Below, piece by piece: positions 1-52,279 of a DNA stretch of 64,000 nt. The notes under the pieces are model-generated. The model was not told the DNA's origin and searched no databases. It saw nothing but the letters and a program-made list of their open reading frames with translations. The stretch lies in the NCBI RefSeq assembly GCF_044324785.1, contig NZ_CP172127.1; one strand, written 5' to 3'. The stretch is from Escherichia coli. GTDB taxonomy: Bacteria; Pseudomonadota; Gammaproteobacteria; Enterobacterales; Enterobacteriaceae. Positions within the stretch are counted from its first letter, which is position 1. Every line of letters begins with the position of its first letter. The position numbers and the translations under genes are program-made.

Positions 1-650
1 GTTTCTGGTGCGTTTATGGCGTGATATGCCCCCCGCTTTGCTGAACCTGTCAGGAGTCTTTTTTCACCATGTGAGGTAATAGTCTGTGCTGCTGTTACTG
101 CGCCGGATTTATCCACCAGCGCCAGCAACAGAGATCCATCGGGCAACACGGGGAATGTAAAATCACCTACCCCTTTCGCAACCAGATAATCAGATTTGCC
201 GTTTACAGCCTTTCTGCGCATGTCATCAAACTGACGGGAAAACGTATCCCGTCTTTGTTGTTCGTCCTTCTCTGCCCTTTTCAGGCGCTCCTGTTCGCGT
301 CGCTGGCGCTCGGTTTCCAGTTGTTCCCGTTTCTGGCTGGTGGCTTCTGGTGTTTCCGTTGTCCGGTAATCAATACCCAGAACATCAGCGGCAAGAAGCG
401 CCGCCTCTGTTGTGTCGCAGTTATTTACGCGTTTAATTAAATCCAGCCCATCACCAGCGCCGCACTGATTACAGATGAAGCTACCGCGCCCGTTGTCATC
501 GAACCGGAATCGATCTTTGCCCCCACATGCAGGGCAGGGAGCATGACGGCGCGGAGAGTCAGGGACATTTATGTTCAGGCAGCCCAGCACATGAGGCCAG
601 TTGTTTTCAGACGCACTGATAACCTGACGGATAAGATCAATGTTTCGCAT
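1..650 (-). CDS. P4-family DNA primase, N-terminal part only (gene continues beyond window start)
   Basis: Manual translation of the minus strand from ATG at 650-648 gives MRNIDLIRQVISASENNWPHVLGCLNINVPDSPRRHAPCPACGGKDRFRFDDNGRGSFICNQCGAGDGLDLIKRV...; the CPxCGGxDRFRF...CNQCGxGDG pattern is the zinc-ribbon of P4 alpha/TraC-type primases. No stop before position 1. Confidence 0.6.
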   Translation of the reverse strand, partial: MRNIDLIRQVISASENNWPHVLGCLNINVPDSPRRHAPCPACGGKDRFRFDDNGRGSFICNQCGAGDGLDLIKRVNNCDTTEAALLAADVLGIDYRTTETPEATSQKREQLETERQRREQERLKRAEKDEQQRRDTFSRQFDDMRRKAVNGKSDYLVAKGVGDFTFPVLPDGSLLLALVDKSGAVTAAQTITSHGEKRLLTGSAKRGAYHAINAPE

Positions 651-1008
651 CACCGTACCCCACGTGGTCTATAGCGTTTGCGATATGGCTAACCAGCATC
701 TGCCACTTGGTTATTCCGTAATCAGTCAGCATGCCATCATTGTTTAGCCACATATCAAATTCAGCGGTTGTCGCAAGTTTCCACTTATCGCCGTGGACAG
801 TCCTCATTGCTGGGTACATGAATGCGCAAATCAGATCACAAACATCTGACGGCTTCAGAGATGTAGTAATGGTGCGTCCCTCTGGCGTCTGAATTGCCAT
901 TTTCTCTTCACCAGTAGAATGAAGGTTATGAATCCACACAGCACCAGCAATCTTTGCCACCTGCTCTCCGATTGCGGAGCTAAGCGCCATTTCTGCATTT
1001 TCACGCAT
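637..1008 (-). CDS. hypothetical protein (mobile element, 123 aa)
   Basis: ORF in same-strand tightly packed gene string; start/stop overlaps with neighbours suggest an operon. No recognisable motif. Confidence 0.45.
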   Translation of the reverse strand: MRENAEMALSSAIGEQVAKIAGAVWIHNLHSTGEEKMAIQTPEGRTITTSLKPSDVCDLICAFMYPAMRTVHGDKWKLATTAEFDMWLNNDGMLTDYGITKWQMLVSHIANAIDHVGYGDAKH

Positions 1009-1342
1009 GAGAACCTCCCGCTACAGTTGCGCCCATGTCATTAACCATGCTTTGCCATATCTCACGCCCGACGTCAGTCAATCCGTCCTTAGTGACGCAA
1101 CGTTCAAGAAGCTCGATCCCCACGGTTTCCCACTGCGGGTAGAACACTTTCATGGCTGCCAGTGTGTAGCTATCGATCAGGCTGCGAACGCCTTTTACTC
1201 CATTGACGATTTCCACACGGACGGCCTCGCCGTCCGCATCAACCATGAAATAGTCCCCGCCGCTGGTGGAGGTAATGTGGTTATACAGTGCCGACGCATA
1301 CTTATTTGCCAGCGCATTCAGTCGGAAATTTTTAGTAATCAT
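1001..1342 (-). CDS. hypothetical protein (mobile element, 113 aa)
   Basis: ORF overlapping the downstream ORF start by 8 nt, typical of translational coupling. No recognisable motif. Confidence 0.45.
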   Translation of the reverse strand: MITKNFRLNALANKYASALYNHITSTSGGDYFMVDADGEAVRVEIVNGVKGVRSLIDSYTLAAMKVFYPQWETVGIELLERCVTKDGLTDVGREIWQSMVNDMGATVAGGSHA

Positions 1343-1352
1343 GGCTCCATCC

Positions 1353-1955
1353 TCAGTGCGTCACTGGTTCCGCTGGCATGCCGTTTTCATTCAGTTCAGC
1401 TATAAAGCTGTTGTGAAGTTCAGCAAGCGTTTCACGCCCAAATGGAGTCAGTGCTCCTTGTTCCACATCCATCATGGCTCTGTAGAAAATGATGGCGCGT
1501 TCTGTGCCAGACTCGATGCCAAAACGTTCTATCATCGCGCCCTCAATGTTGTTTGCCATAGCGAGGCGCTCTGCTACTGGATACAGCGGCATGGCGACGA
1601 TGCCGTTGGAATAAACAGCCACTTCGGAAGGATTGCCAGTATCATCAATGATGCTGACAGTGCCGTTTTCCTCTCTCATTTCCAGCATGAATACTGTTGC
1701 GATCAGCCATCTCCACATAATGACGTTATGCTGTGATGTGTAATCGAAATATCCCTGGTTGCCGCCATCGGCAATAGCGAGATGTATTGACATACCTTCA
1801 TCTGGTTTATCGTCATAATCCCCGGCATCCAGACGATTTACGGCATCAATATATGAGATGGCCTCAACGCGTTCTGTCATGCCATCGTTGCTGCGGTACA
1901 TGATGTTTACGCCGTCAGGCGTTGCTTCTGCATGGAAAGTTAAGAAATTATTCAT
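1353..1955 (-). CDS. hypothetical protein (mobile element, about 200 aa)
   Basis: ORF 1353-2060 trimmed to the ATG at 1955-1953 (MNNFLTFHAEATPDG...) which lies 2 nt after the stop of the upstream 73-aa ORF; longer start would overlap that gene. Confidence 0.4.
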   Translation of the reverse strand: MNNFLTFHAEATPDGVNIMYRSNDGMTERVEAISYIDAVNRLDAGDYDDKPDEGMSIHLAIADGGNQGYFDYTSQHNVIMWRWLIATVFMLEMREENGTVSIIDDTGNPSEVAVYSNGIVAMPLYPVAERLAMANNIEGAMIERFGIESGTERAIIFYRAMMDVEQGALTPFGRETLAELHNSFIAELNENGMPAEPVTH

Positions 1956-2169
1956 GTTTCGCTTCGCCTGAATGATTCTGTAACTCATATTTGCCCAACA
2001 ATTCGTCCGCTTCCTGAATAGCTTCTGGTACGCCATTGAGCAGTGACATAACCGCGCCAATCATTAACTTGTCTCTGTTGCTGGGGCTGGCCCCTTCAAG
2101 CCAGAACCCTAAAACAGTCTGAACCTGTTCGATGCGACATTGCGCTTCAATGAGCTGGATGTTGGTCAT
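1948..2169 (-). CDS. hypothetical small protein (73 aa)
   Basis: ORF in operon-like array, start overlaps upstream ORF stop (2166-2169). Confidence 0.4.
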   Translation of the reverse strand: MTNIQLIEAQCRIEQVQTVLGFWLEGASPSNRDKLMIGAVMSLLNGVPEAIQEADELLGKYELQNHSGEAKHE

Positions 2170-2429
2170 TTCGCACTCTCCACATCGATTAAACCGATAT
2201 CTATCAGGGAGGTAACTTTTTGTAGCCAGCTATTGATTACTGTCGCCTGTTCCCCTCCCACCGAGGGAACAATCTCATTCATCACATGAACCAGACCTGT
2301 GCGCGCTCTGGTAAGCCGTTCAGTCGCGCAATCTGCGGGAGTGAATGTGTCTGGATATGGCTCTTCACGCCCCAGCAATGATTCAATTTCCAGCTCACAC
2401 GGATGACGATAAATTAAGTTGATATTCAT
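2166..2429 (-). CDS. hypothetical small protein (87 aa)
   Basis: ORF in operon-like array; 4-nt overlap with upstream ORF. Confidence 0.4.
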   Translation of the reverse strand: MNINLIYRHPCELEIESLLGREEPYPDTFTPADCATERLTRARTGLVHVMNEIVPSVGGEQATVINSWLQKVTSLIDIGLIDVESAK

Positions 2430-2620
2430 TTTTCACCCCCAAGAATTACCAGCTCGGCACGGGCATCGTTAACCAAAGATGAGCACGCTTTAATCGCATC
2501 CACGACATCAGCAGCGTCCATTTCTTCAGCCGAAAGACTGACAGCAACCAGGACAGCCGCTGCTTGCTCGATTAATTGAAGTGCGGACGTAAGGCGAGGG
2601 GTATTAATTGAGTTATTCAT
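2426..2620 (-). CDS. hypothetical small protein (about 64 aa)
   Basis: ORF 2426-2677 trimmed to ATG at 2620 ([10 protein letters not shown]...) preceded by a G-rich Shine-Dalgarno-like stretch. Confidence 0.35.
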   Translation of the reverse strand: MNNSINTPRLTSALQLIEQAAAVLVAVSLSAEEMDAADVVDAIKACSSLVNDARAELVILGGEK

Positions 2621-3680
2621 TGGTTGCCCCCGTTTTTCCTGGCATTTCGCCACCTTCCAGCAGGAAATGAACGTCACGAACGGCGAGATCCAATATCGCG
2701 AGTAACGCCTTCAGTCTTTCGTCTCGTGAGGGAGAGTTGCTCACCAGAATGTCGTTAATCACTTCTGTCAGTGTGATGATCTGGCTTGTGCGTTCGAGGG
2801 GATCCATATGCACATCGTAGGTTTTAATCATGAGCCACCTCCATGCGGATACGACCAGCAAAAAAGCAGACGTGATCGCGCACCAGAGAACGGCGAGCAT
2901 CGCGTTCAGACTCGGCAGCAATATGATGAATTTTGGCGGTAATTGTCGGGCAATCGCGGCGAACTGCGGCGATAATCCAGATAAATTGCGGTTTTTGGGT
3001 AGGGGTAGTAGCCAGCATGTGGCAGCCTCCATTCGATAGCATGTAACGCTACCACCGGAAACGCCAATTTCGCTGGTGGTAGCCCAGACAGGGTTGGCGT
3101 AACCGGCTCGAATGGATACCGGCGCTTCCGAAGAAGCCCCTGCCTGAGCCACCATTGATTGACAAAGGCGCTGGATTATACACCAACGCCCAAAAAATGG
3201 GTGAGTCAGACCTACGACATAAAAAAAGACGCTCGGCGCGTCATATGTCGCCATTCGATTTACCAGGACGCCAATCCCGGCACCCGTTTTATGAGGTGCC
3301 TTATAACCATAAACCGTGTTGCCGCATAACGGCAAGCTCTTTTTTATGGACTCCGAAAACTCGCTATTGGAAGCACCAGATGCACAGTACATCGCGCTCA
3401 TTTCGTTAACGTCACGCACGTGGACGAATGTTTTTGTGGAGTCACTACACGAGCGGAAGACATCATCTACGACCAGAAATTTTCTGGCGCAGCCGCTGAC
3501 CTTCTCAACGCTAACACCATCGACCGTAATTTCTGACATAGTTAAGGCATCCGCTCCCACCACCAGAAAATGATAAACTTTGCTTGTATCTGCTGTATTA
3601 ATGCCAGACTTTGCTGTCATATTGCTGGATTTTGGCGACATACCTGCCAGTGAAAATGTCTTCTTCTGGACGGTTAGCAT
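2613..3680 (-). CDS. hypothetical protein; gene structure uncertain (355-aa ORF, possibly two genes)
   Basis: Single uninterrupted ORF with a GGAGG Shine-Dalgarno 7 nt before its ATG at 3680; however a second strong GGAGGTG ribosome-binding site precedes an internal ATG at 2831 and the middle of the ORF has a W/C-rich composition atypical of real protein. Confidence 0.3.
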
Positions 3681-3856
3681 TTGTTAACCTCCGCGAACTC
3701 CTTCATGAAACGTGCCAGCGGTTGTACGCATGGCGATTGATACCCGTCGCGATAAAACGTCACTCGGTTGTGAGACACGCTTTCGACAGTAACGAGTGCT
3801 CCGTGGGCATCTTTGTAGCGTTTTTGAGGTTGTGGTGTTCCTGTCGGCTTAAACAT
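3674..3856 (-). CDS. hypothetical small protein (about 60 aa)
   Basis: ORF 3674-3943 trimmed to internal ATG (MFKPTGTPQPQK...) so that it does not run deep into the upstream gene; stop abuts the next ORF start. Confidence 0.3.
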   Translation of the reverse strand: MFKPTGTPQPQKRYKDAHGALVTVESVSHNRVTFYRDGYQSPCVQPLARFMKEFAEVNKC

Positions 3857-4682
3857 GGACCGCCTCCAGACGCTTGGCGAGCCAGCGTTGCGACAGGCGG
3901 GTGAGTTCTCCTTTGCGCTGCTCATATTCCATGCCCATATCAATTAACGTGATATTGGTGCTTTCGAGATATGAGAGGTGCTCAAGCTGTTCTGCGTTCA
4001 TATGGTCGCGAGGTTCGCCAGAATAGCCATTTATCCGCGCCCACTGCTTAGCAGTTAGCCCACCAAGAACGATACGAGAAATCATATTGCTCTCGTTTGT
4101 GTAGTGGTGTTGCTGCGTCGTTTTCCCCTGCTCGGCACGGGCCATATTCAGCGCATCGCACATTGGCTTAAAGTTGTTTGCGGCACTAATACGGGCTTTT
4201 AGCTGGCGACGATAGCGGGCGGCGATTTCAGGCACGCTACGCTGTAATTCTTCCTCGCACTGGATGAAATAACGACGGATAGCGCGACCCTGATCATTGC
4301 GTTCGATCATTGCCAGTTCTTTCGCCATTCCGACACTTAACAGATAGTCTTTGCCGGGTCTGCCAGACTGCTTAATCTTGCTGTAAGCCGCGCCATTCGG
4401 GCTTTTCCCCAAATTTGGGGAAATTGTTTTATGGACTGAGTAATCGTGCCCAATGGTGAAGTCATATTCAGAGATGCGATCAGTGATCCATGTAGAGAAG
4501 TCTTTTCCCACGCCCAACGCTTTGTGTAACGCTTTTGCGCTAACAATATTGGTTTCACGCCCACCGATATGACCAGGAATAACCGGGACAATTGCGGCAA
4601 ATTCATTACCGTTAATTGTGCCCAGAGAGGCGTTCAGATGAGGGGCGGCCTCAGAAATTAATCTGCTTTTTTCGATGTTCAT
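3849..4682 (-). CDS. phage antirepressor-like protein (AntA N-terminal / KilA-C-like C-terminal)
   Basis: 277-aa ORF; sequence features reminiscent of prophage antirepressor families (…AKALHKALGVGKDFSTWITDRI… and C-terminal …ELAMIERNDQGRAIRRYFIQCEEEL…). Family call from memory, not searched. Confidence 0.5.
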   Translation of the reverse strand: MNIEKSRLISEAAPHLNASLGTINGNEFAAIVPVIPGHIGGRETNIVSAKALHKALGVGKDFSTWITDRISEYDFTIGHDYSVHKTISPNLGKSPNGAAYSKIKQSGRPGKDYLLSVGMAKELAMIERNDQGRAIRRYFIQCEEELQRSVPEIAARYRRQLKARISAANNFKPMCDALNMARAEQGKTTQQHHYTNESNMISRIVLGGLTAKQWARINGYSGEPRDHMNAEQLEHLSYLESTNITLIDMGMEYEQRKGELTRLSQRWLAKRLEAVHV

Positions 4683-4694
4683 TTTCAGTCTCCG

Positions 4695-5126
4695 TTAGGC
4701 GGCGTTAAACGCGTCCGGGTAGAGTTTCAGAATGTCGGCAATTTCCTGCTGAGAAAGTCCGTTGTGATCATTTATGTTCGCAAGATGGTTAACATGAGTG
4801 ATCACTTTCAGAACATCACCACGGCAGGAGAAACGGTAGCGGAGGTGTGTTCCGATACCATCAGGATTCTTTTCGTCGATACGCTCCAGAATGATTCCAA
4901 GCTGGCGTTCTAACTCTGTTGCATAGTTACGACCAGAAGACAGACGGCAGTAGCGAAGAATGTCATTTTCTGTCCATCCCTCTATACCAGTACGCAGCAT
5001 ATAGACTCTGGCACGATGTTTTTTCGGTGTGCGCTTTGGTGCTTGAAGGGATTTTTTCAGGGGCGTAACATCAGACACGCGAATATCTGAATTAGCCGCC
5101 TGTAATGGGCGGTTTTTCTTTTCCAT
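4695..5126 (-). CDS. hypothetical protein (mobile element, 143 aa), basic N-terminus
   Basis: ORF immediately downstream of alpA-like gene with start/stop overlap at 5126. Confidence 0.45.
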   Translation of the reverse strand: MEKKNRPLQAANSDIRVSDVTPLKKSLQAPKRTPKKHRARVYMLRTGIEGWTENDILRYCRLSSGRNYATELERQLGIILERIDEKNPDGIGTHLRYRFSCRGDVLKVITHVNHLANINDHNGLSQQEIADILKLYPDAFNAA

Positions 5127-5329
5127 CAGGCCACCTTCCCGCGGCGTTCTGCCAGCCAGTTGTGAATCTCAACCGCATCAAACGCAGTTATTTTTTCTCC
5201 CAGCTTTACTGGACGTGGTAGTGAACCGTTTCTTACTTTACGGTCGATGGTGGATACACTAACGCCCAGCAATTCAGCCAGGCGAAAGCGTCTGATATAG
5301 CCTTTTGTAGGGATAGTGTCGATGTTCAT
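5126..5329 (-). CDS. alpA: AlpA-family prophage transcriptional regulator / excisionase-like HTH protein
   Basis: 67-aa ORF MNIDTIPTKGYIRRFRLAELLGVSVSTIDRKVRNGSLPRPVKLGEKITAFDAVEIHNWL...; size and HTH pattern match AlpA/Vis-like proteins of P4/CP4-type elements. Confidence 0.7.
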   Translation of the reverse strand: MNIDTIPTKGYIRRFRLAELLGVSVSTIDRKVRNGSLPRPVKLGEKITAFDAVEIHNWLAERRGKVA

Positions 5330-5435
5330 GATTCCCGTAACCTCTTAGCGATAGTTGTTGCTTCGTTACGAGAAATCTAGCTGTATAGATATACAATGAA
5401 AAGGTACTGTAATTTTGCAGTACCTCTATAGTAAG

Positions 5436-6386
5436 TTAACTATCCACTTTGCCATTTGCCGCAGATCGTAGATGTTTAAGAATTACATCTTCATTAGTTA
5501 TCATAAGTGGTGGAACTTCGTCTAAATGACGAACAAGACAGTCACGCCACTTCTCAGGGCTTATTTCTTTCCTTTCTCCCCTGCATTCATTTGGATACTT
5601 ACTAAGTATATAAATTGCAGATTTTAATAGTTTCTCCCTATTGACTGCGTACCGTTCGGCACGTTTATTAACTTTTAGCGTATTTATATCATTGGATAAC
5701 TTGTTTGCGGATGGTTTGTGCATGGGTCTGTCATAAATATATTTTCCTCCATTTATAAGAAGATTGTATTCATAGTCAGTTATATACATTTTGTTTCGGC
5801 TTATTTCATACCAGCCGTCAATATAAAAAGCTCCGATTTCATAATTATTCGATTTGCTAAACTCGTCACATCTCGGAGGTATCAGTTCGCATACAGAGAT
5901 CTCCCAATCATCCCATTCTGATAGCTCCCGCTCATCGTTATCTATGAACGCAGGCGGAATTGCTAATAGACCGCTCCATCTTTCGATATCTCTTTCATCC
6001 TTCCCAACATTGTATCGCTCTATAACTGAGAAATGTTCTGATTTGTATGAAAACCTCATAAAATACATATAGTTATCGCTATTTTTATAATCAAGTGATG
6101 ATAAGCCATATGATTCGAGATTATCTGCCTTATTGCTCAGATCAAGGAGATAATTCTCATGTGCTGCTTTTGTATCTATATGAAAAATACTATCTGTTTC
6201 AACTTTAAGTAATTCTGGCTCGGCATCTTCATTTTTTGGGTAATGGTAAAACAATTCAATAGGTGGAATTTTTATACATATTTCTAAAACCCCAATTGCT
6301 GCATAGTGTATTAAATCGGATACTTCACATCCGGCCAGTTTGGCTGCTTTATCCAAAGAATAATATTTATGCGCAGGTAATTTCAT
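5436..6386 (-). CDS. hypothetical cargo protein (316 aa), AT-rich, between integrase and alpA
   Basis: Long ORF with markedly AT-rich codon usage compared with flanking genes; N-terminus has an HTH-like stretch (SLDKAAKLAGCEVSDLIHYAAIG); acidic, Y/N/K-rich remainder without recognisable catalytic motif. Confidence 0.55.
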   Translation of the reverse strand: MKLPAHKYYSLDKAAKLAGCEVSDLIHYAAIGVLEICIKIPPIELFYHYPKNEDAEPELLKVETDSIFHIDTKAAHENYLLDLSNKADNLESYGLSSLDYKNSDNYMYFMRFSYKSEHFSVIERYNVGKDERDIERWSGLLAIPPAFIDNDERELSEWDDWEISVCELIPPRCDEFSKSNNYEIGAFYIDGWYEISRNKMYITDYEYNLLINGGKYIYDRPMHKPSANKLSNDINTLKVNKRAERYAVNREKLLKSAIYILSKYPNECRGERKEISPEKWRDCLVRHLDEVPPLMITNEDVILKHLRSAANGKVDS

Positions 6387-6404
6387 TATGAATCTTTCCT
6401 CTCA

Positions 6405-7658
6405 TCATGCTCTGATTGGCGTTACGTTGTAGTCTTTTCCGCTTTCCAGTGCCACCAGCAGATCTGCCCACTGTGCTAGTGCTGCTTTACGCTCATCAAA
6501 ATACTGATGACGGTTATAAATCCCCTCTACGCCCTTAATGCGATGATTGAGGCATCGTTCCGCCACGACAGGATCAACACCCAATGCTGCTAAATGAGTA
6601 CGTGCGGTGCGTCGGAAGTCGTGAATCGTGAAATTAGGCACATCCGGAATTTCGGCGCGAACCTTAGCCAGTGCTACGGGTAAAGTGCTTTCCTGAATAT
6701 GTGGGATCATTCTGTTTTGCATCTTCCTGGCCGGAAGCACCCATGCGCTATTACATGAAAAGGTGTGTAGCTCTCTCAACCATTCAACGGCTGGGGAAGG
6801 TAGAGGTATATCAATAGGGTCTCCGTTTTTGCTGCGTTCTTCCGGCAAATGCCATACCGCACCATCTAAATCAAACTCTTCCCATCGTGCGGCGCATAAC
6901 TCCATCTTACGAACGCATAGTGCCAGCAATAGTTTAAATGTCAGTTCGTTTTGGCGGCTGAATCCTTTTGCGGTGCGCATAGCCTCGAATAGTCTGATAA
7001 GCTCATCGCGAGTTAGCCAACGGTCGCGGGAAACCTCTTTACCACCAGCATCAGATACTTCAAACGCTGAACAAGGGTTTATCTCCAGAGCGTGGCGTTT
7101 TATCCCATAGTCAAAGATACGGCGTGTCCAGCGCAATACATCTGTTGCTATCGTTGGTGCTCCTCGGTCAACGATACCTTTCAACATGTCGTCAATGTGG
7201 CGTGGCTTAACGTCCTCTACCTTCATATGCCCAATGCAGGGGTTAATATCCTTATCAATTCTCCGGCGAAGGATATCGGGATGTTTCCATCTCGGAAGTA
7301 TCTGGCGCTCGAAGTATTCGGAGGCCAGATCTGAAACACGCATGGCGTTTTTCTCAGCCTCCATTTTTGCCAGTGCTTCAGCTTTTCGTTCCTGTTTCTC
7401 TGCTGCTACGTCATAGCCAAGAGCAACTCTGGCTGACAGCTCTTTTGCTGTTTCTCTGGCTTTTGATAGTGACAGTTCGGAGTAAGAGCCTATAACCATA
7501 GCCCGCTGCTTTCCTGCGAGCTTATAGCGGAATCGCCAGAACGGGACTGTGTAGTTTTTGGGGTAGCAAATATAAAGGCCGTTGCCGTCTGCCTTGCCAT
7601 CAAATCTGTCTCCCGCCTTTATCCATGCGCGGATCTGCATATCTGTGAGTTTTGGCAT
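6405..7658 (-). CDS. int: tyrosine site-specific integrase, P4-type
   Basis: ORF 6405-7742 trimmed to MPKLTDMQIRAWIKAGDRFDG... (typical P4-integrase N-terminus); C-terminal catalytic region contains ...HDFRRTARTHLAALGV... and ...GIYNRHQY... (R/H-x-x-R/Y signature). Confidence 0.85.
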   Translation of the reverse strand: MPKLTDMQIRAWIKAGDRFDGKADGNGLYICYPKNYTVPFWRFRYKLAGKQRAMVIGSYSELSLSKARETAKELSARVALGYDVAAEKQERKAEALAKMEAEKNAMRVSDLASEYFERQILPRWKHPDILRRRIDKDINPCIGHMKVEDVKPRHIDDMLKGIVDRGAPTIATDVLRWTRRIFDYGIKRHALEINPCSAFEVSDAGGKEVSRDRWLTRDELIRLFEAMRTAKGFSRQNELTFKLLLALCVRKMELCAARWEEFDLDGAVWHLPEERSKNGDPIDIPLPSPAVEWLRELHTFSCNSAWVLPARKMQNRMIPHIQESTLPVALAKVRAEIPDVPNFTIHDFRRTARTHLAALGVDPVVAERCLNHRIKGVEGIYNRHQYFDERKAALAQWADLLVALESGKDYNVTPIRA

Positions 7659-7686
7659 TGCGAATACCTGAATATCGAATATGGGT

Positions 7687-7738
7687 GTGTACATAAAGCA
7701 ATGTACATGAAAGTCATTATGTACACCTCTATGTACAC
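7687..7738. promoter_or_regulatory. four direct copies of ATGTACA-like motif just upstream of int: candidate integrase arm-type binding sites / att region
   Basis: gtgtacat (7687-7694), atgtacatg (7701-7709), atgtacac (7719-7726), atgtacac (7731-7738) visible directly in sequence. Confidence 0.35.
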
Positions 7739-7783
7739 GCATATTGTGCGCTTTGTTGCGTCGTTATGATAGCTCATGATAAC

Positions 7784-7820
7784 AAAAAAGCCCGACATTT
7801 CGCGGGCTTTGTGGTTTTTT
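7784..7820. terminator. bidirectional rho-independent terminator downstream of yicC
   Basis: aaaaaagcccg-acatttcg-cgggctttgtggtttttt: GC stem flanked by A-run and T-run. Confidence 0.5.
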
Positions 7821-8836: not shown

Positions 8837-9553
8837 ATGCGTCCAGCAGGCCGTAGCAATAATCAGGTGCGTCCCGTTACCCTGACTCGTAACTATACAA
8901 AACATGCAGAAGGCTCGGTGCTGGTCGAATTTGGCGATACCAAAGTATTGTGTACCGCCTCTATTGAAGAAGGCGTGCCGCGCTTCCTGAAAGGTCAGGG
9001 CCAGGGCTGGATCACCGCAGAGTACGGCATGCTGCCACGTTCTACCCACACCCGTAACGCGCGTGAAGCGGCGAAAGGTAAGCAGGGTGGACGCACCATG
9101 GAAATCCAGCGTCTGATCGCCCGTGCTCTTCGCGCGGCAGTAGATTTGAAAGCGCTGGGTGAGTTCACTATTACGCTGGACTGCGACGTGCTTCAGGCTG
9201 ATGGTGGCACGCGTACCGCGTCGATTACGGGTGCCTGCGTGGCGCTGGCAGATGCGCTACAGAAGCTGGTGGAAAACGGCAAGCTGAAAACCAACCCGAT
9301 GAAAGGGATGGTAGCCGCGGTTTCTGTCGGGATTGTGAACGGCGAAGCGGTTTGCGATCTGGAATACGTTGAAGACTCAGCCGCAGAGACCGACATGAAC
9401 GTAGTGATGACCGAAGACGGGCGCATCATTGAAGTGCAGGGGACGGCAGAAGGCGAGCCGTTCACCCATGAAGAGTTACTCACCTTGTTGGCGCTGGCCC
9501 GAGGGGGAATCGAATCCATTGTAGCGACGCAGAAGGCGGCGCTGGCAAACTGA
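8837..9553 (+). CDS. rph: ribonuclease PH (full length)
   Basis: ORF trimmed to [42 protein letters not shown]...; 238 aa, intact C-terminus. Confidence 0.9.
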
Positions 9554-9560
9554 TTTTTAA

Positions 9561-9586
9561 GGCGACTGATGAGTCGCCTTTTTTTT
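9561..9586 (+). terminator. rph-pyrE intercistronic attenuator hairpin with T8 tract
   Basis: ggcgact-gatg-agtcgcc followed by tttttttt, read directly; matches the known UTP-sensitive pyrE attenuator location. Confidence 0.7.
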
Positions 9587-9618
9587 GTCTGTAGAAAAGT
9601 AAGATGAGGAGCGAAGGC

Positions 9619-10260
9619 ATGAAACCATATCAGCGCCAGTTTATTGAATTTGCGCTTAGCAAGCAGGTGTTAAAGTTTGGCGAGTTTACGCTGAAGTCCG
9701 GGCGCAAAAGCCCCTATTTCTTCAACGCCGGGCTGTTTAATACCGGGCGCGATCTGGCACTGTTAGGCCGTTTTTACGCTGAAGCATTGGTGGATTCCGG
9801 CATTGAGTTCGATCTGCTGTTTGGCCCTGCTTACAAAGGGATTCCGATTGCCACCACAACTGCCGTGGCGCTGGCGGAGCATCATGACCTGGACCTGCCG
9901 TACTGCTTTAACCGCAAAGAAGCAAAAGACCACGGTGAAGGCGGCAATCTGGTCGGTAGCGCGTTACAAGGACGCGTAATGCTGGTGGATGATGTGATCA
10001 CCGCCGGAACGGCGATTCGCGAGTCGATGGAAATTATTCAGGCCAATGGCGCGACGCTTGCTGGCGTGTTGATTTCGCTCGATCGTCAGGAACGGGGGCG
10101 CGGCGAGATTTCGGCAATTCAGGAAGTTGAGCGTGATTACAACTGCAAAGTGATCTCTATCATCACCCTGAAAGACCTGATTGCTTACCTGGAAGAGAAG
10201 CCGGAAATGGCGGAACATCTGGCGGCGGTTAAGGCCTATCGCGAAGAGTTTGGCGTTTAA
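9619..10260 (+). CDS. pyrE: orotate phosphoribosyltransferase
   Basis: [40 protein letters not shown]...; PRTase motif [13 protein letters not shown]. Confidence 0.95.
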
Positions 10261-10295
10261 AAATATGCGCTGTGCAGGGTTTTTGCTGTGCGCAG

Positions 10296-10326
10296 CGTGA
10301 TGCGCTTTAAGATATCGTGTTAATCT
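10296..10326 (+). promoter_or_regulatory. possible retron promoter (extended -10 TGt-TAATCT, weak -35)
   Basis: TG at 10318-10319 followed by taatct at 10321-10326, about 6 nt upstream of the predicted msr 5' end at 10332. Weak match; could also be read-through from pyrE. Confidence 0.25.
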
Positions 10327-10331
10327 GCTTT

Positions 10332-10525
10332 CGCCAGCAGTGGCAATAGCGTTTCCGGCCTTTTGTGCCGGGAGGGTCGGCGAGTCGCCGACTTAACGCC
10401 AGTAGTATGTCCATATACCCAAAGTCGCTTCATTGTACCTGAGTACGCTTCGCGTACGTCGCGCTGACGCGCTCAGTACAGTTACGCGCCTTCGGGATGG
10501 TTTAATGGTATTGCCGCTGTTGGCG
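10332..10525 (+). ncRNA. msr-msd: retron msr-msd non-coding RNA (template and primer for msDNA), bounded by a1/a2 inverted repeats
   Basis: a1 10332-10348 (cgccagcagtggcaata) pairs with a2 10509-10525 (tattgccgctgttggcg) as a 17-bp RNA duplex with two G-U wobbles; unpaired G at 10349 in the context AUAG-C is the candidate branching G; msr hairpins ccggc-cttttgt-gccgg (10355-10371) and gtcggcg-agt-cgccgac (10376-10392); msd palindromic block 10434-10480. Confidence 0.6.
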
Positions 10526-10557
10526 CCTCTTTTGGCCGCCGTGATGTGGAGAGTGGA

Positions 10558-11517
10558 ATGGATGCTACCCGGATAACCCTTCTGGCGCTCGATTTGTTCG
10601 GCTCGCCGGGCTGGAGCGCCGATAAAGAAATACAGCGGCTGTATGCGCTCAGTAATCATGCCGGACGCCATTACCGACGCATTATTCTTTCTAAACGCCA
10701 CGGTGGTCAGCGGCTGGTGTTAGCCCCTGATTACTTGCTCAAAACCGTACAGCGCAACATTCTTAAGAACGTTCTTTCACAATTTCCGCTTTCCCCTTTT
10801 GCTACAGCCTACCGACCAGGTTGCCCAATTGTCAGCAACGCGCAGCCTCACAGCCAACAGCCACAAATACTGAAACTCGATATCGAAAACTTTTTCGATA
10901 GTATTAGCTGGTTACAGGTCTGGCGTGTGTTTCGCCAGGCCCAGTTGCCACGTAATGTGGTAACCATGCTGACCTGGATTTGTTGTTATAACGACGCGTT
11001 ACCGCAGGGGGCACCAACTTCGCCAGCCATTTCCAATCTTGTGATGCGCTGTTTTGATGAGTGCATCGGGGCATGGTGCCAGGCACGAGGAATTACCTAC
11101 ACCCGCTACTGCGATGACATGACTTTTTCAGGTCACTTCAATGCCCGCCAGGTTAAAAATAAAGTGTGCGGATTGTTAGCGGAGATGGGCCTGAGCCTCA
11201 ATCAACGCAAAAGCTCCCTGATAGCTGCCTGTAAGCGCCAGCAGGTAACCGGGATTGTTGTTAATCACAAACCACAGCTTGCCCGCGAAGCGCGGCGGGC
11301 GCTGCGTCAGGAAGTACACTTATGCCAAAAATATGGCGTCATTTCGCATCTTAGTCGTCGTGGTGAACTTGATCCTTCATGCGATCTCCATGCACAGGCA
11401 ACGGCGTATCTTTATGCTTTGCAGGGAAGAATAAACTGGCTATTGCAAATCAATCCTGAGGATGAGGCCTTTAAACAGGCGAGGGAAAGTGTAAAGCGAA
11501 TGCTGTTGGCATGGTAA
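10558..11517 (+). CDS. ret: retron-type reverse transcriptase (319 aa)
   Basis: Start at ATG 10558 preceded by GGAGAG; contains RT motifs ...LPQGAPTSPAISNL... and ...ITYTRYCDDMTFSG... (YxDD box); size typical of retron RTs with no extra fused domain. Confidence 0.9.
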   Translation: MDATRITLLALDLFGSPGWSADKEIQRLYALSNHAGRHYRRIILSKRHGGQRLVLAPDYLLKTVQRNILKNVLSQFPLSPFATAYRPGCPIVSNAQPHSQQPQILKLDIENFFDSISWLQVWRVFRQAQLPRNVVTMLTWICCYNDALPQGAPTSPAISNLVMRCFDECIGAWCQARGITYTRYCDDMTFSGHFNARQVKNKVCGLLAEMGLSLNQRKSSLIAACKRQQVTGIVVNHKPQLAREARRALRQEVHLCQKYGVISHLSRRGELDPSCDLHAQATAYLYALQGRINWLLQINPEDEAFKQARESVKRMLLAW

Positions 11518-11525
11518 GAAAAGCG

Positions 11526-11547
11526 TCAGGCAGACGTTTCTGCCTGA
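11526..11547. terminator. hairpin between convergent RT and slmA genes
   Basis: tcaggcaga-cgtt-tctgcctga perfect 9-bp stem in the 43-bp gap. Confidence 0.45.
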
Positions 11548-11560
11548 ACGTTTGGGAGAA

Positions 11561-12157
11561 TTACTGCAACTGTGCGGCAATTAGCGGCCAGCGGGCGTCA
11601 AAATCATCCGTCGGGCGGTATTTAAACTCGCTGCGGACAAAGCGTGACAGCATACCTTCACAGAAGGCCAGGATCTGGCTTGCCAGCAGGGTTTCATCGG
11701 TGGTGTAACCTTCACCCTCACGCATTCTCTTTTCGCGCAATACCTGACGCAACTGCGCTTCAATACGCTCGAACAGCTGGTTGATGCGCCCTTGCAGGCG
11801 ATCCTGTTCAAACATTAGTGCATGACCAGTGAGGATGCGGGTCAGGCCAGGATTACGCTCACCAAAACCGAGAAGCAGCAACACAATCAGACGCAGGCGC
11901 GCTGTGGTGTCCTTCTCATCTTTCAGAATCAGATTGATGCGAGTAATCAGGCTATCTTCGATAAACTCAATCAGGCTATCGAACATGCGGGTCTTACTGG
12001 GGAAGTGGCGATACAGTGCCGCTTCGGAAACGCCGACAGAGGCGGCCAGTTTTGCCGTCGTGATACGTTGGCTTCCATCGCTGGATTCCAGCATCAGCGC
12101 CAGAGACTGAAGTATTTCCTCGCGACGGTTCCTTTTCGCAGTTTGTTTTTCTGCCAT
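11561..12157 (-). CDS. slmA: nucleoid occlusion factor SlmA (TetR family)
   Basis: ORF trimmed to [52 protein letters not shown]... Confidence 0.9.
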
Positions 12158-12263
12158 GTTACAAAATACCCCTGAAAATAAGCACTTGCCAGGCGGCACC
12201 CACGCTATGACCGCAAACGAAATGTTTGCGGCTATGTTATGACGTTATTCGGATGCGTATGTG

Positions 12264-12722
12264 TTACTGACGACCAGAGTGACCAAAGCCGCCTTCACCG
12301 CGGTCGGTGGCGTCGAAATCTTCCACCAGATTAAATTCAGCCTGTACTACCGGAACAAAAATCATCTGGGCGATGCGTTCGCCAGGTTGAATGGTGAAGC
12401 TGTCCTGACCACGGTTCCACACGGAAATCATCAACTGGCCCTGATAGTCGGAATCGATCAATCCTACCAGGTTACCAAGCACGATACCGTGCTTATGTCC
12501 CAATCCGGAGCGCGGCAGCATCATTGCCGCCAGTGAAGGATCGGCAATATGAATCGCCAGCCCGGTCGGAACCAGCGTAGTGTCACCCGGAGCCAGTTCT
12601 ACGGCGTCGTCGAGACAGGCACGCAGGTCAAGTCCGGCAGAGCCAGAGGTGGCATAAGTCGGGAGCGGAAATTCCTTCCCAACGCGCGGGTCCAGAATCT
12701 TAACGTCGATTTTTTTCATCAT
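12264..12722 (-). CDS. dut: dUTP diphosphatase
   Basis: [37 protein letters not shown]... recognised. Confidence 0.9.
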
Positions 12723-46564: not shown

Positions 46565-49500
46565 TTACCACTGAATACCGGCACCGAGTGCGGCGGAGTA
46601 TTCACCCTGGCTATTGGTACTACCTTGTAATTTGTAGACCCAACGACCATTGGCGCTCACCATCGACACACCTAAAGCAACAGCCGACTCACCGTTGTAA
46701 GTACCGCCACCAATAGAGGCCATACTGGCACCTGGAGTGTAAGCCTGCGGCAGACCGGTCATTGCCATTGCAGAAGCGATACCACCGCTCAACTTGCTTT
46801 CGGTTTTGGACAGTTTGTTATCCATCTCAACCATCCGCTGATCGGTGTATTGCTTCGTTTCCTGCACGCTTTGCTTCAGCTGCGCATAGTTCACTGCGTC
46901 GTTGTTGTTCACGCCAGCGGAGACGTTGCTGATGCGAGTCGTACCGCCATTACCACCACCGAGAGTGATGTTGCTGTAGTCTACAGAGCCATCAGCTTTG
47001 GTGTCGTAACGAACGCCGCCTGCCTCAGAAGACTTCAGCTGCGAAACGTTAACCGCATCGGTGGCATTAACACCTGCAGCAACGTTGGTGATACGACGCT
47101 GGTTGGTAGAAGAACCCACAGAGATGGTATTTTCTTCGTTGGCCACGGAGCCTGTACCCAGCGCGACGCTGTTGTCAGCGGCAGCAATGGAACCAGAACC
47201 AATCGCAACACTGTCTTTACCCTGCGCGTTGGCATCTACGCCATCGGTGTTGGTCTTGAAGTATTTGGTGCTACCGGTGGTTACGATATCGCCAATGCCG
47301 TTTTCGATATTGGTAACGCGAGTATCCAGATTCGTCACCTGATTGTTCAGGTTAGTAATGCTCTGGGTATTCTGGGAAACCTGCGCGTCCGTTACTTTCA
47401 ACTGACCCACGTTGACCGCATCGGTATCAGCCGAACCAGCCGCGACGTTGGTGATCTGACGTTGACCGTCTTCACTGCCGACAGAGAACTCACCCACAGA
47501 GTTCTGCGGTGCATCCATGTTGTAGGCGGTGTAGCCAGTTTGAGCACCACGAGTCGTCTGTGAGCCATTACCCATAGCAATGCTGTTTGCATGGTTTGCA
47601 CGCGCGTTGCTACCAATAGCAATACCGTTGATCGCATCAGACAGAACCAGAGTGTTCAGGCCGATACCAATGCCCGCATTACCATTAACGATAGTATTCG
47701 CGCCCATTGCCAGCGAGTCAGTACCTACTGCCAGTGAATCTTCTTCCGTTGAATTAGCGTGGAAGTATTTAGTCGGCGTGGTTGCAACTGCACCAATGGC
47801 ATTTTGCAACTGGCGAACCGTAACGGCGTCATGGGCTTCGGAACCATCGGCTACGTTGATGATTTGACGATATTTACCATCATCACCAATAGACAACGCA
47901 CCAAGTAGTTCGCCATCCGTGGTGTCATAACCAATCACAACACCTTCTTCCGACACGCTGGTGTCACGAGAACCTTTAACTATTACACGGCTGGAAACAG
48001 AACTGCTACCCAGGGCGATACCCGTATCAACGTCGCTGTAGCTGTCCTGACCGATGACTACACTGCTATGGCCTTCGGCAACAGCGTTATAACCCACGGC
48101 CACGCTGCTATCGCCTTTGGCAACAGAGTCATAACCGACAGCGGTAGAGCCGATACCAACTGCGCTGGCGTCGTTGAACGCTAAGCCCTTATCGTTGGTA
48201 CGCACATAGTTAATACCTGCACCATTTTCGTTGATATAGGATTCGCTGGTGTCACCGGCAAGCTGATTGATGATTTCGCTGTTCTGCTGGATCATCATAT
48301 TGGTGTTAAACAGCTGAGAACCGTTGATGGCGTCGGTACTGCCTTCGCCAATGTTACCATCAGCAACGTTTGTGATGATGCTGGCCTTGCCGTCATGGCT
48401 GGCGTTGTAGGCACCTGCACCGTCATTGGCCGTTGCATCCCACAGCAGAGCGTTATCGTCGAGCGCATCCAGGGCGTCACCGACGTTGTTGTACTCGGCA
48501 TTTGCAATGGTGTAACTCGGCGCAGTGATAGTGCCGTCAGCGTTAACTTCTGCGTCACCCCCCAGGGCATCGGCAATGTATTTGTTGGTGGTATACAGTT
48601 GTGAACCGTTAATGGCATCGCTGCTGGTGGCAGAGATTGCACCGTTAGCGACGTTAGTGATTACACTGGCTGTTTTATCTTTTCCGTGAGCGGCGCTAAA
48701 TGCACCATTACCATCATTGGCTGTAGCATCCCACAGCAGGGCGTCATCCAGCGTGGTATCGATCGCTTCCAGCGCGTCACCGACGTTGCTGTAACTGCCG
48801 CCAGCGATGGCATAAGTCGGTGCGGTGATTGTGCCGTCAGCATTGACTTCTGCGTCACCACCCAGAGTATCGGCAATGTACTTGCTGGTGTCATAGAGCT
48901 GTGAGCCGTTAATAGCGTCGCTGCTGGTAGAGGAAATTGCACCGTCTGCAACATTAGTAATGATGCTGGCCATGTTATCTTTTCCGCGACCGGCGCTAAA
49001 CGCACCGTCACCGCCCTTGGCGGTCGCATCCCAGAGTAGGGCGTCACCGAGTGATGTGCTAAATGACGTGTTAATGGCTGCCAGAGCCTCACCGACGTTA
49101 TTGTAGTCAGTACCACCAATAGTGTAGGTTGGCCCGGTTAATACACCCGCATCGCTGATATCAGCACCACCGCCAAGGTATGACGTAAATGAATCAGCTA
49201 AGCCATAAAGTTGTGAGCCATTAATGGCGTCAGTGCTGTCAGAGGATACTGTGCCTGCCAGTAAGTTGGTGATTTTGCTGTCAGTACCGTTGGTGCCGTG
49301 TTTGGCACTGAATGCACCCGCCGTAGCATTCCACAGCAGAGAGTCATCACCGAGACTGTCAACAGCATCACTCAGGTTGTTGATATTGGTAGTGTTGGTG
49401 GTGATATTGGCGGTATTGGTCGCCACGTTATCGTTGGTGGTTTTCAGCTGAGAGCCGTTAACCGCGTCGGTGCTGCCAGCCGCCAGTTCACCGGCTTTGA

Positions 49501-52279
49501 CGTTGGTGATTTTGTTGGTGGCATCGGTGCCGTGCGCGGCGCTGAATGCTTTCGCTGCATCATTCCACAGCAGAGAGTCATCACCGAGACTGTCAACAGC
49601 GTCAGTCAGGTTGGTGATGTTGGTGGTGTTCGTGGCGATATTGGTGGTGTTGGCTGCCACGGCATCGTTAGTGGTTTTGAGCTGAGAGCCGTTAACCGCG
49701 TCGGTGCTGCCAGCCGTCAGGTCACCGTCTTTGACGTTAGTGATTTTGCTGGTGGCATCGGTACCGTGTGCGGCGCTGAATGCTTTCGCTGCATCATTCC
49801 ACAGCAGAGAGTCATCACCGAGACTGTCAACAGCGTCAGTCAGGTTGGTGATGTTGGTGGTGTTCGTGGCGATATTGGTGGTGTTGGCTGCCACGGCATC
49901 GTTAGTGGTTTTGAGCTGAGAGCCGTTAACCGCGTCGGTGCTGCCAGCCGTCAGGTCACCGTCTTTGACGTTAGTGATTTTGCTGGTGGCATCGGTACCG
50001 TGTGCGGCGCTGAATGCTTTCGCTGCATCATTCCACAGCAGAGAGTCATCACCGAGACTGTCAACAGCGTCAGTCAGGTTGGTGATGTTGGTGGTGTTCG
50101 TGGCGATATTGGTGGTGTTGGCTGCCACGGCATCGTTAGTGGTTTTGAGCTGAGAGCCGTTAACAGCGTCGGTGCTGCCAGCCGTCAGGTCACCGTCTTT
50201 GACGTTGGTGATTTTGCTGGTGGCATCGGTGCCGTGCGCGGCGCTGAACGCGGTGCCATTCCACAGCAGGGCATCGTCTTTAAGGTCGCCAACGGAATCA
50301 GTCAGGTTGGTGATATTGGTGGTGTTGGTCGCTACGTTATCGTTGGTGGTTTTGAGCTGAGAGCCGTTAACCGCGTCAGTGCTGCCAGCCGTCAGGTCAC
50401 CGTCTTTGACGTTGGTGATTTTGCTGGTGGCATCGGTGCCGTGCGCGGCGCTGAACGCGGTGCCATTCCACAGCAGGGCATCGTCTTTAAGGTCGCCAAC
50501 GGAATCAGTCAGGTTGGTGATATTGGTGGTGTTGGTCGCTACGTTATCGTTGGTGGTTTTGAGCTGAGAGCCGTTAACCGCGTCAGTGCTGCCAGCCGTC
50601 AGGTCACCGTCTTTGACGTTAGTGATTTTGCTGGTGGCATCGGTGCCGTGCGCGGCGCTGAACGCGGTGCCATTCCACAGCAGGGCATCGTCTTTAAGGT
50701 CGCCAACGGAATCCGTCAGGGTATTGATACTGTTAGTGTTGGTGGTGATATTGGCAGTATTGGTCGCTACGTTATCGTTGGTGGTTTTCAGCTGAGAACC
50801 GTTAACCGCATCCTTACTGGTATCAGAAATAGCGCCGTCTTTAACGTTGGTGATGGTACTGGTAGTATCTGTACCATGTGCCGCACTATATGCCTTTTTA
50901 AGGGAGTCCCATTGTAACGTATTATTGTCCAGGCCCGTTAAGGCGTCGCCAACAGTGCCGAAAATACCACTTTTCAGCCTGTAATTTGGGGAAGTAACGA
51001 CGCCTTGCGCATTGACGGTAGCCCCCCCACCAAGATTGTCCGCTACTGACTTACTGATAGCATAAAGCTGTGATCCATTGATGGCATCAGTACTGGTAGT
51101 GCTGATATCACCTGCTGCCATATTGACAATTTGTCGCTGAGCTGTTGTGTTACCCACAGAAACAGTATCCGCGTCAGTCGCTACAGAACCAGCACCCAGA
51201 GCAACTGAATTTTTCCCCTGAGCACTGGCTTGAGCACCAATTGCAGTGCCATTTTCTAAACCGGCATAACTGCCTTGTCCAAGAGCAATAGCATTTACAC
51301 CACCTGTAATACTACCATTACCCAGCGCGATAGCATTTGCGCCGTCAGCTTTATTCCCTTGACCGATGGCAATTGCGCCAGCCGCTACTGCCTGACTTTG
51401 ATTGCCCAGAGCAATCGTGTTGTCGACATCTGCAATACTGCCGGAGCCCAACGCGATACTATTAAGTCCATTTGCCTCCGCGTTAGTACCAACTGCCGTC
51501 GCATTTTCAGCAGCTTTGCTCTCTGCACCCATAGCAATCGCGTTTGCGTCGCTGGCGGCGGATAGTCTGCCTAATGCGAGGCTGTCTACGCCAGCAGCAG
51601 CACTGTTACGGCCTACTGCAATCGCGTTAGCTGCAGATGCGGCACTACTTGCACCCAGCGCCATTGCATATTCTTTCGACGCATTAGCCGTTGCACCGAG
51701 GGCGATACTCATAATTCCTAAGGCCTTGCTCTTACGTCCAAATGCGATGGCGTCATCAGCACCAGTCTCTGCGTAATCCCCTTGTGCAATAGCAAATTCA
51801 CCTGTTGAGTTTGCATAACGACCAAGTGCGATTGAAAATCCACCCGTTGACGTTGCCGATGCACCTATAGCGAGGCTTCGCTCACCTGCTGAGATAGTGT
51901 TAATCCCTAACGCCACTGATGCTTCGCCAAGCGAATGGGTCTTAGCACCGAGGGCTGTTGACCACCTTCCGTCAGCAGTTGAGTGATAACCTACTGCGGT
52001 GCTGGAGCCACCCCCGGTGTCTGTAAAGCTATTTGCTTTTGCATCTTCACCGATAGCAACCCAGCCTGTTCCTGTGCCCTGGCCATAATTGACGCCCTGA
52101 CCGTTGTCAATCCCGGCATTCGCCAGTGCCCCAAACGACGACAACAACCCACCCGCAACCAGGGCAGAAATTAACAGCTTACTGCGCCCGCTCTTTTTGC
52201 CACGGCTTTTGGCCGTTTCGCTGGCAACGGTGTAACTGCCCGTAGCCGGATTCCAGATAACTTTAAAAATTTTGTTCAT
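46565..52279 (-). CDS. trimeric autotransporter adhesin (YadA-like membrane anchor; UpaG/EhaG/SadA family), 1904 aa
   Basis: N-terminal extended signal peptide [21 protein letters not shown]...; hundreds of residues of NxxAxG/SxAxG head and neck repeats; C-terminal YadA-type anchor ...[41 protein letters not shown] ending in aromatic residue. Confidence 0.9.
49452..50800. repeat. near-identical in-frame tandem repeats inside the autotransporter gene (3 x 234 bp then 3 x 207 bp)
   Basis: Antisense ORF track shows identical 71-aa peptides at 49704 and 49938 (period 234) and identical 62-aa peptides at 50172 and 50379 (period 207); in the sense frame the protein repeats [48 protein letters not shown]... 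Confidence 0.85.

Follow-up and report, generated by a model that had tools for sequence, protein, structure and literature searches.

An intact allele of Retron-Ec107 between pyrE and slmA of Escherichia coli, probably functional without an effector gene of its own

Retrons are now seen as three-part abortive-infection systems in which the multicopy single-stranded DNA (msDNA) restrains a toxin. What, then, might a retron do that has no toxin gene beside it? This question is raised by a locus between pyrE and slmA in a 64,000-nucleotide stretch of Escherichia coli DNA (assembly GCF_044324785.1, contig NZ_CP172127.1), hereafter called the window. An earlier, sequence-only reading of the window had noticed a solitary reverse transcriptase (RT) gene there and had proposed a retron without an effector encoded in cis. 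Our computational follow-up identified this locus as Retron-Ec107 (Retron-Eco5), present here in an intact form; the retron itself is already known, and the allele is new. In our estimation, it very probably represents a functional, effector-less and vertically maintained Retron-Ec107.

A blastn comparison with K-12 MG1655 delimits the element sharply. The flanks align up to position 10261 and again from position 11560, with 98.3–98.9% identity, and the 34-bp palindrome GAAACTCGCCGGATGAAAAGTCATCCGGCGTCAT of K-12 is replaced in the window by an insert of 1298 bp. This insert holds only a retron non-coding RNA (ncRNA; msr-msd, approximately 10332–10525) and an RT of 319 amino acids. The ncRNA, which is part of the element, was missing from the sequence-only reading. 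In other respects, that reading described the locus well: the RT carries no fused domain, it is flanked by housekeeping genes, with pyrE upstream and the convergent slmA stop 43 bp past the RT stop, and a hairpin with a 9-bp stem separates the two stops. The statement that there is no room for an accessory effector also held, as the insert is full, none of its additional open reading frames (ORFs) is conserved, and PADLOC recognized no effector nearby. The PyrE and SlmA proteins of the window are identical to those of the retron-less K-12.

The earlier reading had named a small overlooked effector ORF as the discovery that would speak against it. We compared the 16 other ORFs of at least 25 amino acids in the insert with 10 other alleles and genera, and none of them keeps both its length and its sequence beyond the conservation of the underlying RT or ncRNA. 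There is thus next to no chance, in our view, that a small protein of the 1.3-kb locus is the effector, or that, as in DRT2, reverse transcription of msd yields a repetitive gene. A 47-amino-acid ORF (10433–10576, + strand) lies over msd and the RT start and is open in all alleles, and a 102-amino-acid antisense ORF (10393–10701) is present in E. coli. However, the product of the former varies in length (47, 61 or 101–103 amino acids), shares only 44–55% identity between genera, and stays open because it lies on a nucleotide-conserved ncRNA, while other species and genera have the latter only in broken form or lack it. Two-component RT–ncRNA systems that make their own effector gene do exist, according to PMC12483538. 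Here, though, the 107-nt msd is not a multiple of three and has stops in five of six frames, so an endless concatemeric ORF is impossible, and the RT reaches only 55.8 bits with the NCBIfam Drt2 model, whose cut-off is 390.

An Rfam scan of positions 9500–12300 at E ≤ 1 returned no retron msr family, only two chance matches; therefore, the ncRNA was defined by repeats, folding and covariation. It is closed by the a1/a2 inverted repeat (10332–10353 and 10504–10525), whose arms are 82% complementary. The predicted fold has a free energy of -95.8 kcal/mol (z = -6.15), and none of the 200 shuffled sequences folded as well. Its shape, with an a1/a2 duplex, two msr hairpins and one long msd hairpin, is the standard msr-msd layout. 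The limits of msd were counted 107 nt back from a2, with the length taken from the literature name msDNA-Ec107.

Comparison across genera confirmed this architecture. Paired positions form standard pairs in 92.6% of cases across genera, versus 33–51% when the partners are slid, and seven pairs are altered on both sides, although the structure itself was derived from one of the compared sequences. The a1/a2 duplex shows compensatory changes from A-U to G-C and from C-G to U-A. Helices 2 and 3, which belong to msr, are 94–100% paired, with compensatory changes between genera, and helices 4–6 of msd are 88–98% paired. G10349, the candidate branching guanosine, is invariant in all seven sequences compared across genera. 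The msr hairpins are nearly invariant within E. coli, and msr identity between species and genera amounts to 81–88%. Between genera, msd is 75–80% and the whole msr-msd 75–83% identical, against 38–49% for the adjacent spacer.

The RT gene starts with the ATG at position 10558 and ends with the stop codon at 11515–11517; the same 960-bp coding sequence is annotated by PGAP in other genomes. RVT_1 is the sole Pfam domain of the protein (residues 46–233, E=1.7e-20). The motifs NAQPH (94), LPQG (148), YCDD (184) and VTG (230) are present, and YCDD is the RT-Eco5 variant of the catalytic box (PMC6868368, Simon et al. 2019). As many as 81 PADLOC retron RT models match the sequence. The best of them is RT_Ec107-like (PDLC03739; E=5.2e-132, 437.8 bits, model positions 4–307 of 307), followed by the RT_III-A models (E=1.6e-93). 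In NCBIfam, the best match is retron_St85_RT, with 226.8 bits, under the curated cut-off of 235.

An effector is absent not only from this locus but also from the Ec107-like lineage as a whole. The proposal of a retron without a cis effector was thus borne out by its relatives, since all those sampled show the same solitary arrangement, including eight contexts from other taxa. For the neighbour survey, we took the 80 best genome loci of 401 confirmed relatives, with one genome per species scanned. When the ORFs within 3 kb of the RT were clustered, no neighbour family occurred in more than 8 of the 80 loci, and the largest families turned up together, as blocks of local synteny. In 35 out of 77 loci, the gene that follows the RT most closely is convergent with it. 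Additionally, five co-directional downstream neighbours were tested, and none gave a PADLOC match.

Some groups of loci do have neighbours of their own. In eight Lachnospiraceae loci (L029-L031, L035-L037, L043, L045), which are among the Firmicutes closest to Ec107, an ORF of 74–76 amino acids (MAMNPKKLFKMQMAWKQFNDTHPKV...) lies on the RT strand, 50–150 bp past the RT gene. Neither Pfam nor PADLOC has a match for it, E. coli has no counterpart of it, and it could be either a lineage-specific accessory protein or mere synteny. In Bariatricus massiliensis and related contigs (L020-L022, L044), a gene with the Pfam label of a MazG-family nucleotide pyrophosphohydrolase (6005–6442) begins on the RT strand, 6 bp past the RT stop; none of the other loci sampled showed it. 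GNAT-like proteins, an AraC-type regulator, cell-wall-binding proteins and membrane proteins, with labels read from the sequences, each occur in a few loci.

It is worth stressing that the missing effector is a published question, not a new one. Mestre 2020 placed the stand-alone cassette in RT clade 2 and posed the alternatives that the earlier reading also named, effectors acting in trans or a different mechanistic function. According to the same study, the branch shares a node with RTs linked to phosphoribosyltransferases (PRTases) and may have lost the associated protein, and most genomes with orphan retrons are without homologues of any known retron-associated protein. Toro 2026 described 'clade2_Ec107like' as an abundant group that occurs mostly in host-associated Bacillota and has no recurrent accessory modules, with type III-A1 as its sister lineage. 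The preprint of Millman et al. left Ec107 out of the defence experiments, and our literature search turned up no later functional work on Ec107. What is new here is the purifying selection, the conservation of the ncRNA across genera, the shared pyrE-slmA site, the parallel divergence of RT and flanks, the solitary position of more distant relatives in other intergenic gaps, the lack of a recurrent neighbour and of a conserved small ORF, and the identity of PyrE with that of K-12.

One answer to the published question would be a tripartite defence system in which the retron is the sensor half and a dedicated effector, encoded at some other place in the chromosome, acts in trans. We consider this unlikely, but it is the alternative to be taken most seriously. 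All characterised defence retrons use an effector (Millman preprint; Mestre 2020), a sensing role would be in line with the selection on the RT and ncRNA, and a P4-like island with an ORF resembling PADLOC PDC-S22 lies 2.5 kb away. However, defence partners are nearly always linked in cis, and none is linked in the 80 loci; the lack of known partner homologues in most orphan-retron genomes (Mestre 2020) points the same way. The element itself sits among core genes, outside a defence island. As for the P4-like island (1–7742), we rejected it as a partner, as the two occur independently: strain CRE1540 has the island without the retron, and IAI39 has the retron without the island.

The distribution of the element in E. 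coli bears on whether it still functions. We found the insert in 381 of 5426 complete genomes, always as a single chromosomal copy, and both the pyrE and the slmA junctions were present in all 381. The record of strain FDAARGOS_944, with a match length of 1300 versus 1302, may carry an indel. Seven representative alleles were chosen, spanning 94.1–96.9% identity to the window, and the 319-amino-acid RT is intact in the window and in six of these seven. For the seven intact alleles, the ratio of nonsynonymous to synonymous divergence (dN/dS, Nei-Gojobori) was 0.15 at a dS of 0.13, compared with 0.02 at 0.11 for pyrE and 0.025 at 0.11 for slmA. The RT is thus under clear, if relaxed, purifying selection. 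Additionally, its dS is close to that of the flanking core genes, so that the age of the RT is roughly that of the split between these E. coli lineages.

These values are hard to reconcile with a degenerate remnant, that is, a type III-A-like retron deprived of its PRTase-like effector and drifting, functionless. The RT_III-A models are indeed second best in PADLOC, Mestre 2020 puts the branch beside PRTase-linked RTs and suggests partner loss, and Toro 2026 names type III-A1 as the sister lineage; moreover, the RT of IAI39 is frameshifted and 93% of complete E. coli genomes are without the element. Nevertheless, the measured dN/dS means that about 85% of amino-acid changes were removed over E. 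coli diversification. All catalytic motifs and the full RT length are kept in the window and in the six intact alleles, and both the structure of the ncRNA, through compensatory changes, and its sequence are kept across genera while the adjacent spacer is scrambled. We therefore regard a functionless remnant as very improbable. The loss of an ancestral effector may well be true; the loss of function is not.

Beyond E. coli, the element keeps its place. An RT homologue with 88% identity lies in the pyrE-slmA gap of an Escherichia sp., and RTs of 68–72% identity occupy the same gap in three Pseudocitrobacter species and two further Enterobacteriaceae lineages. The amino-acid distance between RTs rises with the distance between flanks (r = 0.95, 55 pairs), and the groupings agree. 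As judged from these sequences, the pattern fits vertical descent from before the split of these genera, with many losses.

More distant relatives are also solitary, with 270–500 bp of upstream non-coding DNA. In Leminorella and a related contig (L013, L014, L027, L106), the RT (62–64% identity) lies in the gap between the convergent genes cyaY and cyaA. The RT of Pragia and Budvicia (54%) adjoins a galactarate dehydratase-type gene (Pfam GD_AH), and the relatives in Neisseria, Robinsoniella and Bariatricus sit among unrelated metabolic genes. In the Leminorella-type loci, the stops of the RT and cyaA overlap by 4 bp; the cyaY-cyaA gap is, like pyrE-slmA, a terminator gap between convergent core genes. 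In L014, cyaA and hemC are split into several ORFs, probably by assembly frameshifts.

Such changes of location between families, together with the encoded reverse transcriptase, might recall a selfish mobile retroelement that is maintained by its own transposition and brings no benefit to the host. We find this hardly credible. In the 381 genomes there is one copy at one site and never one on a plasmid, no integrase or endonuclease domain is encoded, and the junctions show no target-site duplication. Phage and plasmid collections yielded no Ec107-like RT above approximately 45% identity, and the divergence of the element tracks that of its host flanks.

The conserved site also draws attention to pyrE, which encodes a phosphoribosyltransferase and could be imagined as the effector, since those of type III retrons are PRTase-like. 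PyrE belongs to PF00156 (Pribosyltran), its gene lies directly upstream in every Enterobacteriaceae lineage whose RT has at least 68% identity, and the adjacency was remarked on by Mestre 2020. Against this, the PyrE of the window is 100% identical to that of the retron-less K-12, its dN/dS is the low value given above, and every E. coli genome has pyrE at this position, whether it carries the retron or not. No PRTase neighbour was found in Leminorella, Pragia/Budvicia, Neisseria, Robinsoniella or Bariatricus, and only 2 of the 59 RTs of the branch adjoin a phosphoribosyltransferase (Mestre 2020). The coincidence of pyrE and a PRTase-related retron is best read as positional, and a role of PyrE as the effector seems scarcely tenable.

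In general, these results allow us to conclude that the element is a functional, vertically inherited two-part retron and not a decaying remnant. Several points weigh against this conclusion. The element is present in just 7% of complete E. coli genomes and is hence dispensable, and in IAI39 (L002 6298–7239) a 1-bp deletion has frameshifted the RT, which is annotated as a pseudogene; this is the only such case among eight. The dN/dS estimate rests on seven alleles whose pairs are not independent. Likewise, the correlation of RT and flank distances comes from non-independent pairs and is dominated by a few deep splits, and repeated site-specific capture through recombination of the flanks could mimic vertical descent. 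A co-directional ORF lies within 150 bp downstream of the RT in 29 of 77 loci, although these ORFs belong to many unrelated families, and the neighbours were clustered by crude ORF calling and BLAST (E ≤ 1e-6), so that remote homology is missed. Finally, our search for partners covered the window and the 3 kb around the RT in the related loci.

How such a two-part retron would work can be outlined from what is established about retron biochemistry and from the literature on Ec107. The ncRNA and the RT would be transcribed together from a promoter within 70 bp after the pyrE terminator. A sigma-70 promoter scan gave no match on the + strand upstream of the ncRNA, which fits the published starvation-dependent expression: phosphate starvation and stationary phase are reported to raise the expression of Ec107 (Herzer 1996, cited in PMC6868368). 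The RT would then bind the msr hairpins and prime from the 2′-OH of G10349, beside the a1/a2 duplex, as branching guanosines of other retrons suggest for this residue. Copying of msd would yield a branched msDNA of 107 nt, trimmed with the help of host RNase H. According to the literature cited in PMC6868368 and PMC8989520, Ec107 does produce msDNA, the length of which depends on RNase H.

The functional unit would be the RT–msDNA ribonucleoprotein, with no dedicated toxin to guard and with a conserved component of the cell or of a phage as its target or partner. We propose this particle as the selected unit because nothing else is conserved together with the RT and msDNA. The conservation of msd in both sequence and shape may indicate that a conserved partner is recognized, and would speak less for an arms race. 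Together with induction in starvation and stationary phase, it would fit a domesticated, host-level role. Anti-phage and physiological roles are both compatible with our data, and we rank neither above the other. As a tentative extension, which is possible but for now rather doubtful, Ec107-like retrons might be domesticated, vertically inherited two-component retrons at fixed terminator sites (pyrE-slmA, cyaY-cyaA) across Enterobacterales, in which a starvation-switched, toxin-free RT–msDNA particle serves as a decoy, sponge or regulator, for example of a conserved host or phage nucleic-acid-binding protein.

The Ec107-like retrons are the main exception to the three-part scheme, and according to Toro 2026 they abound in gut Firmicutes. 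A lineage that is selected, old and fixed in place without a toxin gene argues that RT–msDNA can have a function of its own, which would broaden the view of the purposes that retrons serve. It would, besides, give retron genome editing a minimal, non-toxic chassis. Both the object and the puzzle were already in the literature, and our contribution is supporting comparative evidence rather than a discovery.

The features of the locus are collected in Table 1. The repeat that follows pyrE was not scored in the terminator scan because no T-run comes after it. The arms of its stem are kept from E. coli to Pseudocitrobacter, in a surrounding spacer that is only 38–49% identical, and it is likely either to terminate pyrE or to form the left border of the element. 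The hairpin at the other end has its T-run on the slmA (-) strand; it is the slmA terminator and probably terminates the retron as well. Its stem is kept across genera. In Pseudocitrobacter (L012, L024-L026, L104), the stops of the RT and slmA overlap by 4 bp, and a hairpin of the TCAGGCAGA/TCTGCCTGA type sits within the coding end of the RT; therefore, the hairpin is retained independently of the RT end.

Table 1. Features of the retron locus and its flanks (positions in the window; MFE, minimum free energy)
Feature	Position	Strand	Basis
Whole retron insert, 1298 bp	10262–11559	.	blastn vs K-12 MG1655
a1 arm of the a1/a2 duplex closing the ncRNA	10332–10348	+	inverted repeat, MFE fold
Candidate branching guanosine (2′-OH primer for msDNA)	10349	+	unpaired G just 3′ of a1 in the fold
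msr, two short hairpins (RT recognition elements)	10350–10400	+	fold
msd, long imperfect hairpin, template for 107-nt msDNA	10397–10503, approximate	+	fold
a2 arm of the a1/a2 duplex	10504–10525	+	inverted repeat, fold
Retron RT, 319 aa, Ec107-like, YCDD box	10558–11517	+	ORF, Pfam, PADLOC, motifs
pyrE, flank outside the retron	9619–10260	+	ends 297 bp upstream of the RT
Inverted repeat directly after the pyrE stop, GCGCTGTGCA...TGCGCAGCG	10267–10297	+	read from sequence
9-bp-stem hairpin TCAGGCAGA/TCTGCCTGA between the RT and slmA stops	11526–11547	.	terminator scan
slmA, flank outside the retron	11561–12157	-	annotation of homologous loci

Elsewhere in the window, positions 1–7742 belong to the terminal part of an insertion beside yicC, a P4-like satellite or integrative island. 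It carries a tyrosine integrase (6405–7742, - strand), ash/Icd-like genes, the end of a TOPRIM-DUF927 primase and an AntA/AntB antirepressor-like ORF (3849–4682), whose weak match to PADLOC PDC-S22 (1e-10) is the sole one in the island. In E. coli CRE1540, AH25 and EC28, this site is occupied by the same island, with 99.2% identity; the first of these strains is without the retron. On the - strand, an ORF of 1904 amino acids (46565–52279) belongs to a region for which the best E. coli matches are annotated as a YadA-like family protein and an RHS element core protein. The remainder of the region from 39 to 64 kb is core E. coli sequence (mtlA, lldP, lldD and others). These parts are all unrelated to the retron.

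Among known systems, the closest is Retron-Ec107/Eco5 itself, described in 1992 by Herzer, Inouye & Inouye and said in PMC6868368 to replace a 34-bp palindrome between pyrE and ttk/slmA. The window shares with it the insertion site, the replaced 34-bp palindrome, the size of approximately 1.3 kb, a 319-amino-acid RT with YCDD, the msr-msd upstream and the lack of any further ORF. It differs in sequence: the allele has at most 96.9% DNA identity to the 381 copies, a comparison made with copies in complete E. coli genomes. The flanks of the insert are 98–99.5% identical to other E. coli, and other parts of the window reach 99.2–99.5% (1–7800 to CRE1540, 39001–64000 to strain N3). The retron lineage of the source strain is without a representative among complete genomes.

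Type III-A retrons, which combine an RT with a PRTase-like effector and in some cases a winged-helix auxiliary protein, share the logic of the msr-msd-RT cassette and, as judged by PADLOC, have the closest RT relatives outside the Ec107-like branch. In contrast to them, the locus is without a PRTase-like effector, and the only PRTase nearby is the housekeeping pyrE. Type II-A retrons Ec86 (Eco1) and St85 (Sen2) have RTs of similar length and motifs, but the St85 score falls below its cut-off, no nucleoside deoxyribosyltransferase-like gene is present in the locus, and the element lies outside a prophage or island. With DRT2 and DRT9, the likeness is one of architecture alone, as their gene content is also just an RT and an ncRNA. 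Their RTs belong to another lineage (UG/Abi), and their DNA is made by rolling-circle or protein-primed synthesis, in contrast to the 2′-5′ branched msDNA of retrons. Even so, they provide a precedent, according to PMC12483538, for an RT and an ncRNA that are complete by themselves, with the DNA product supplying the effector function.

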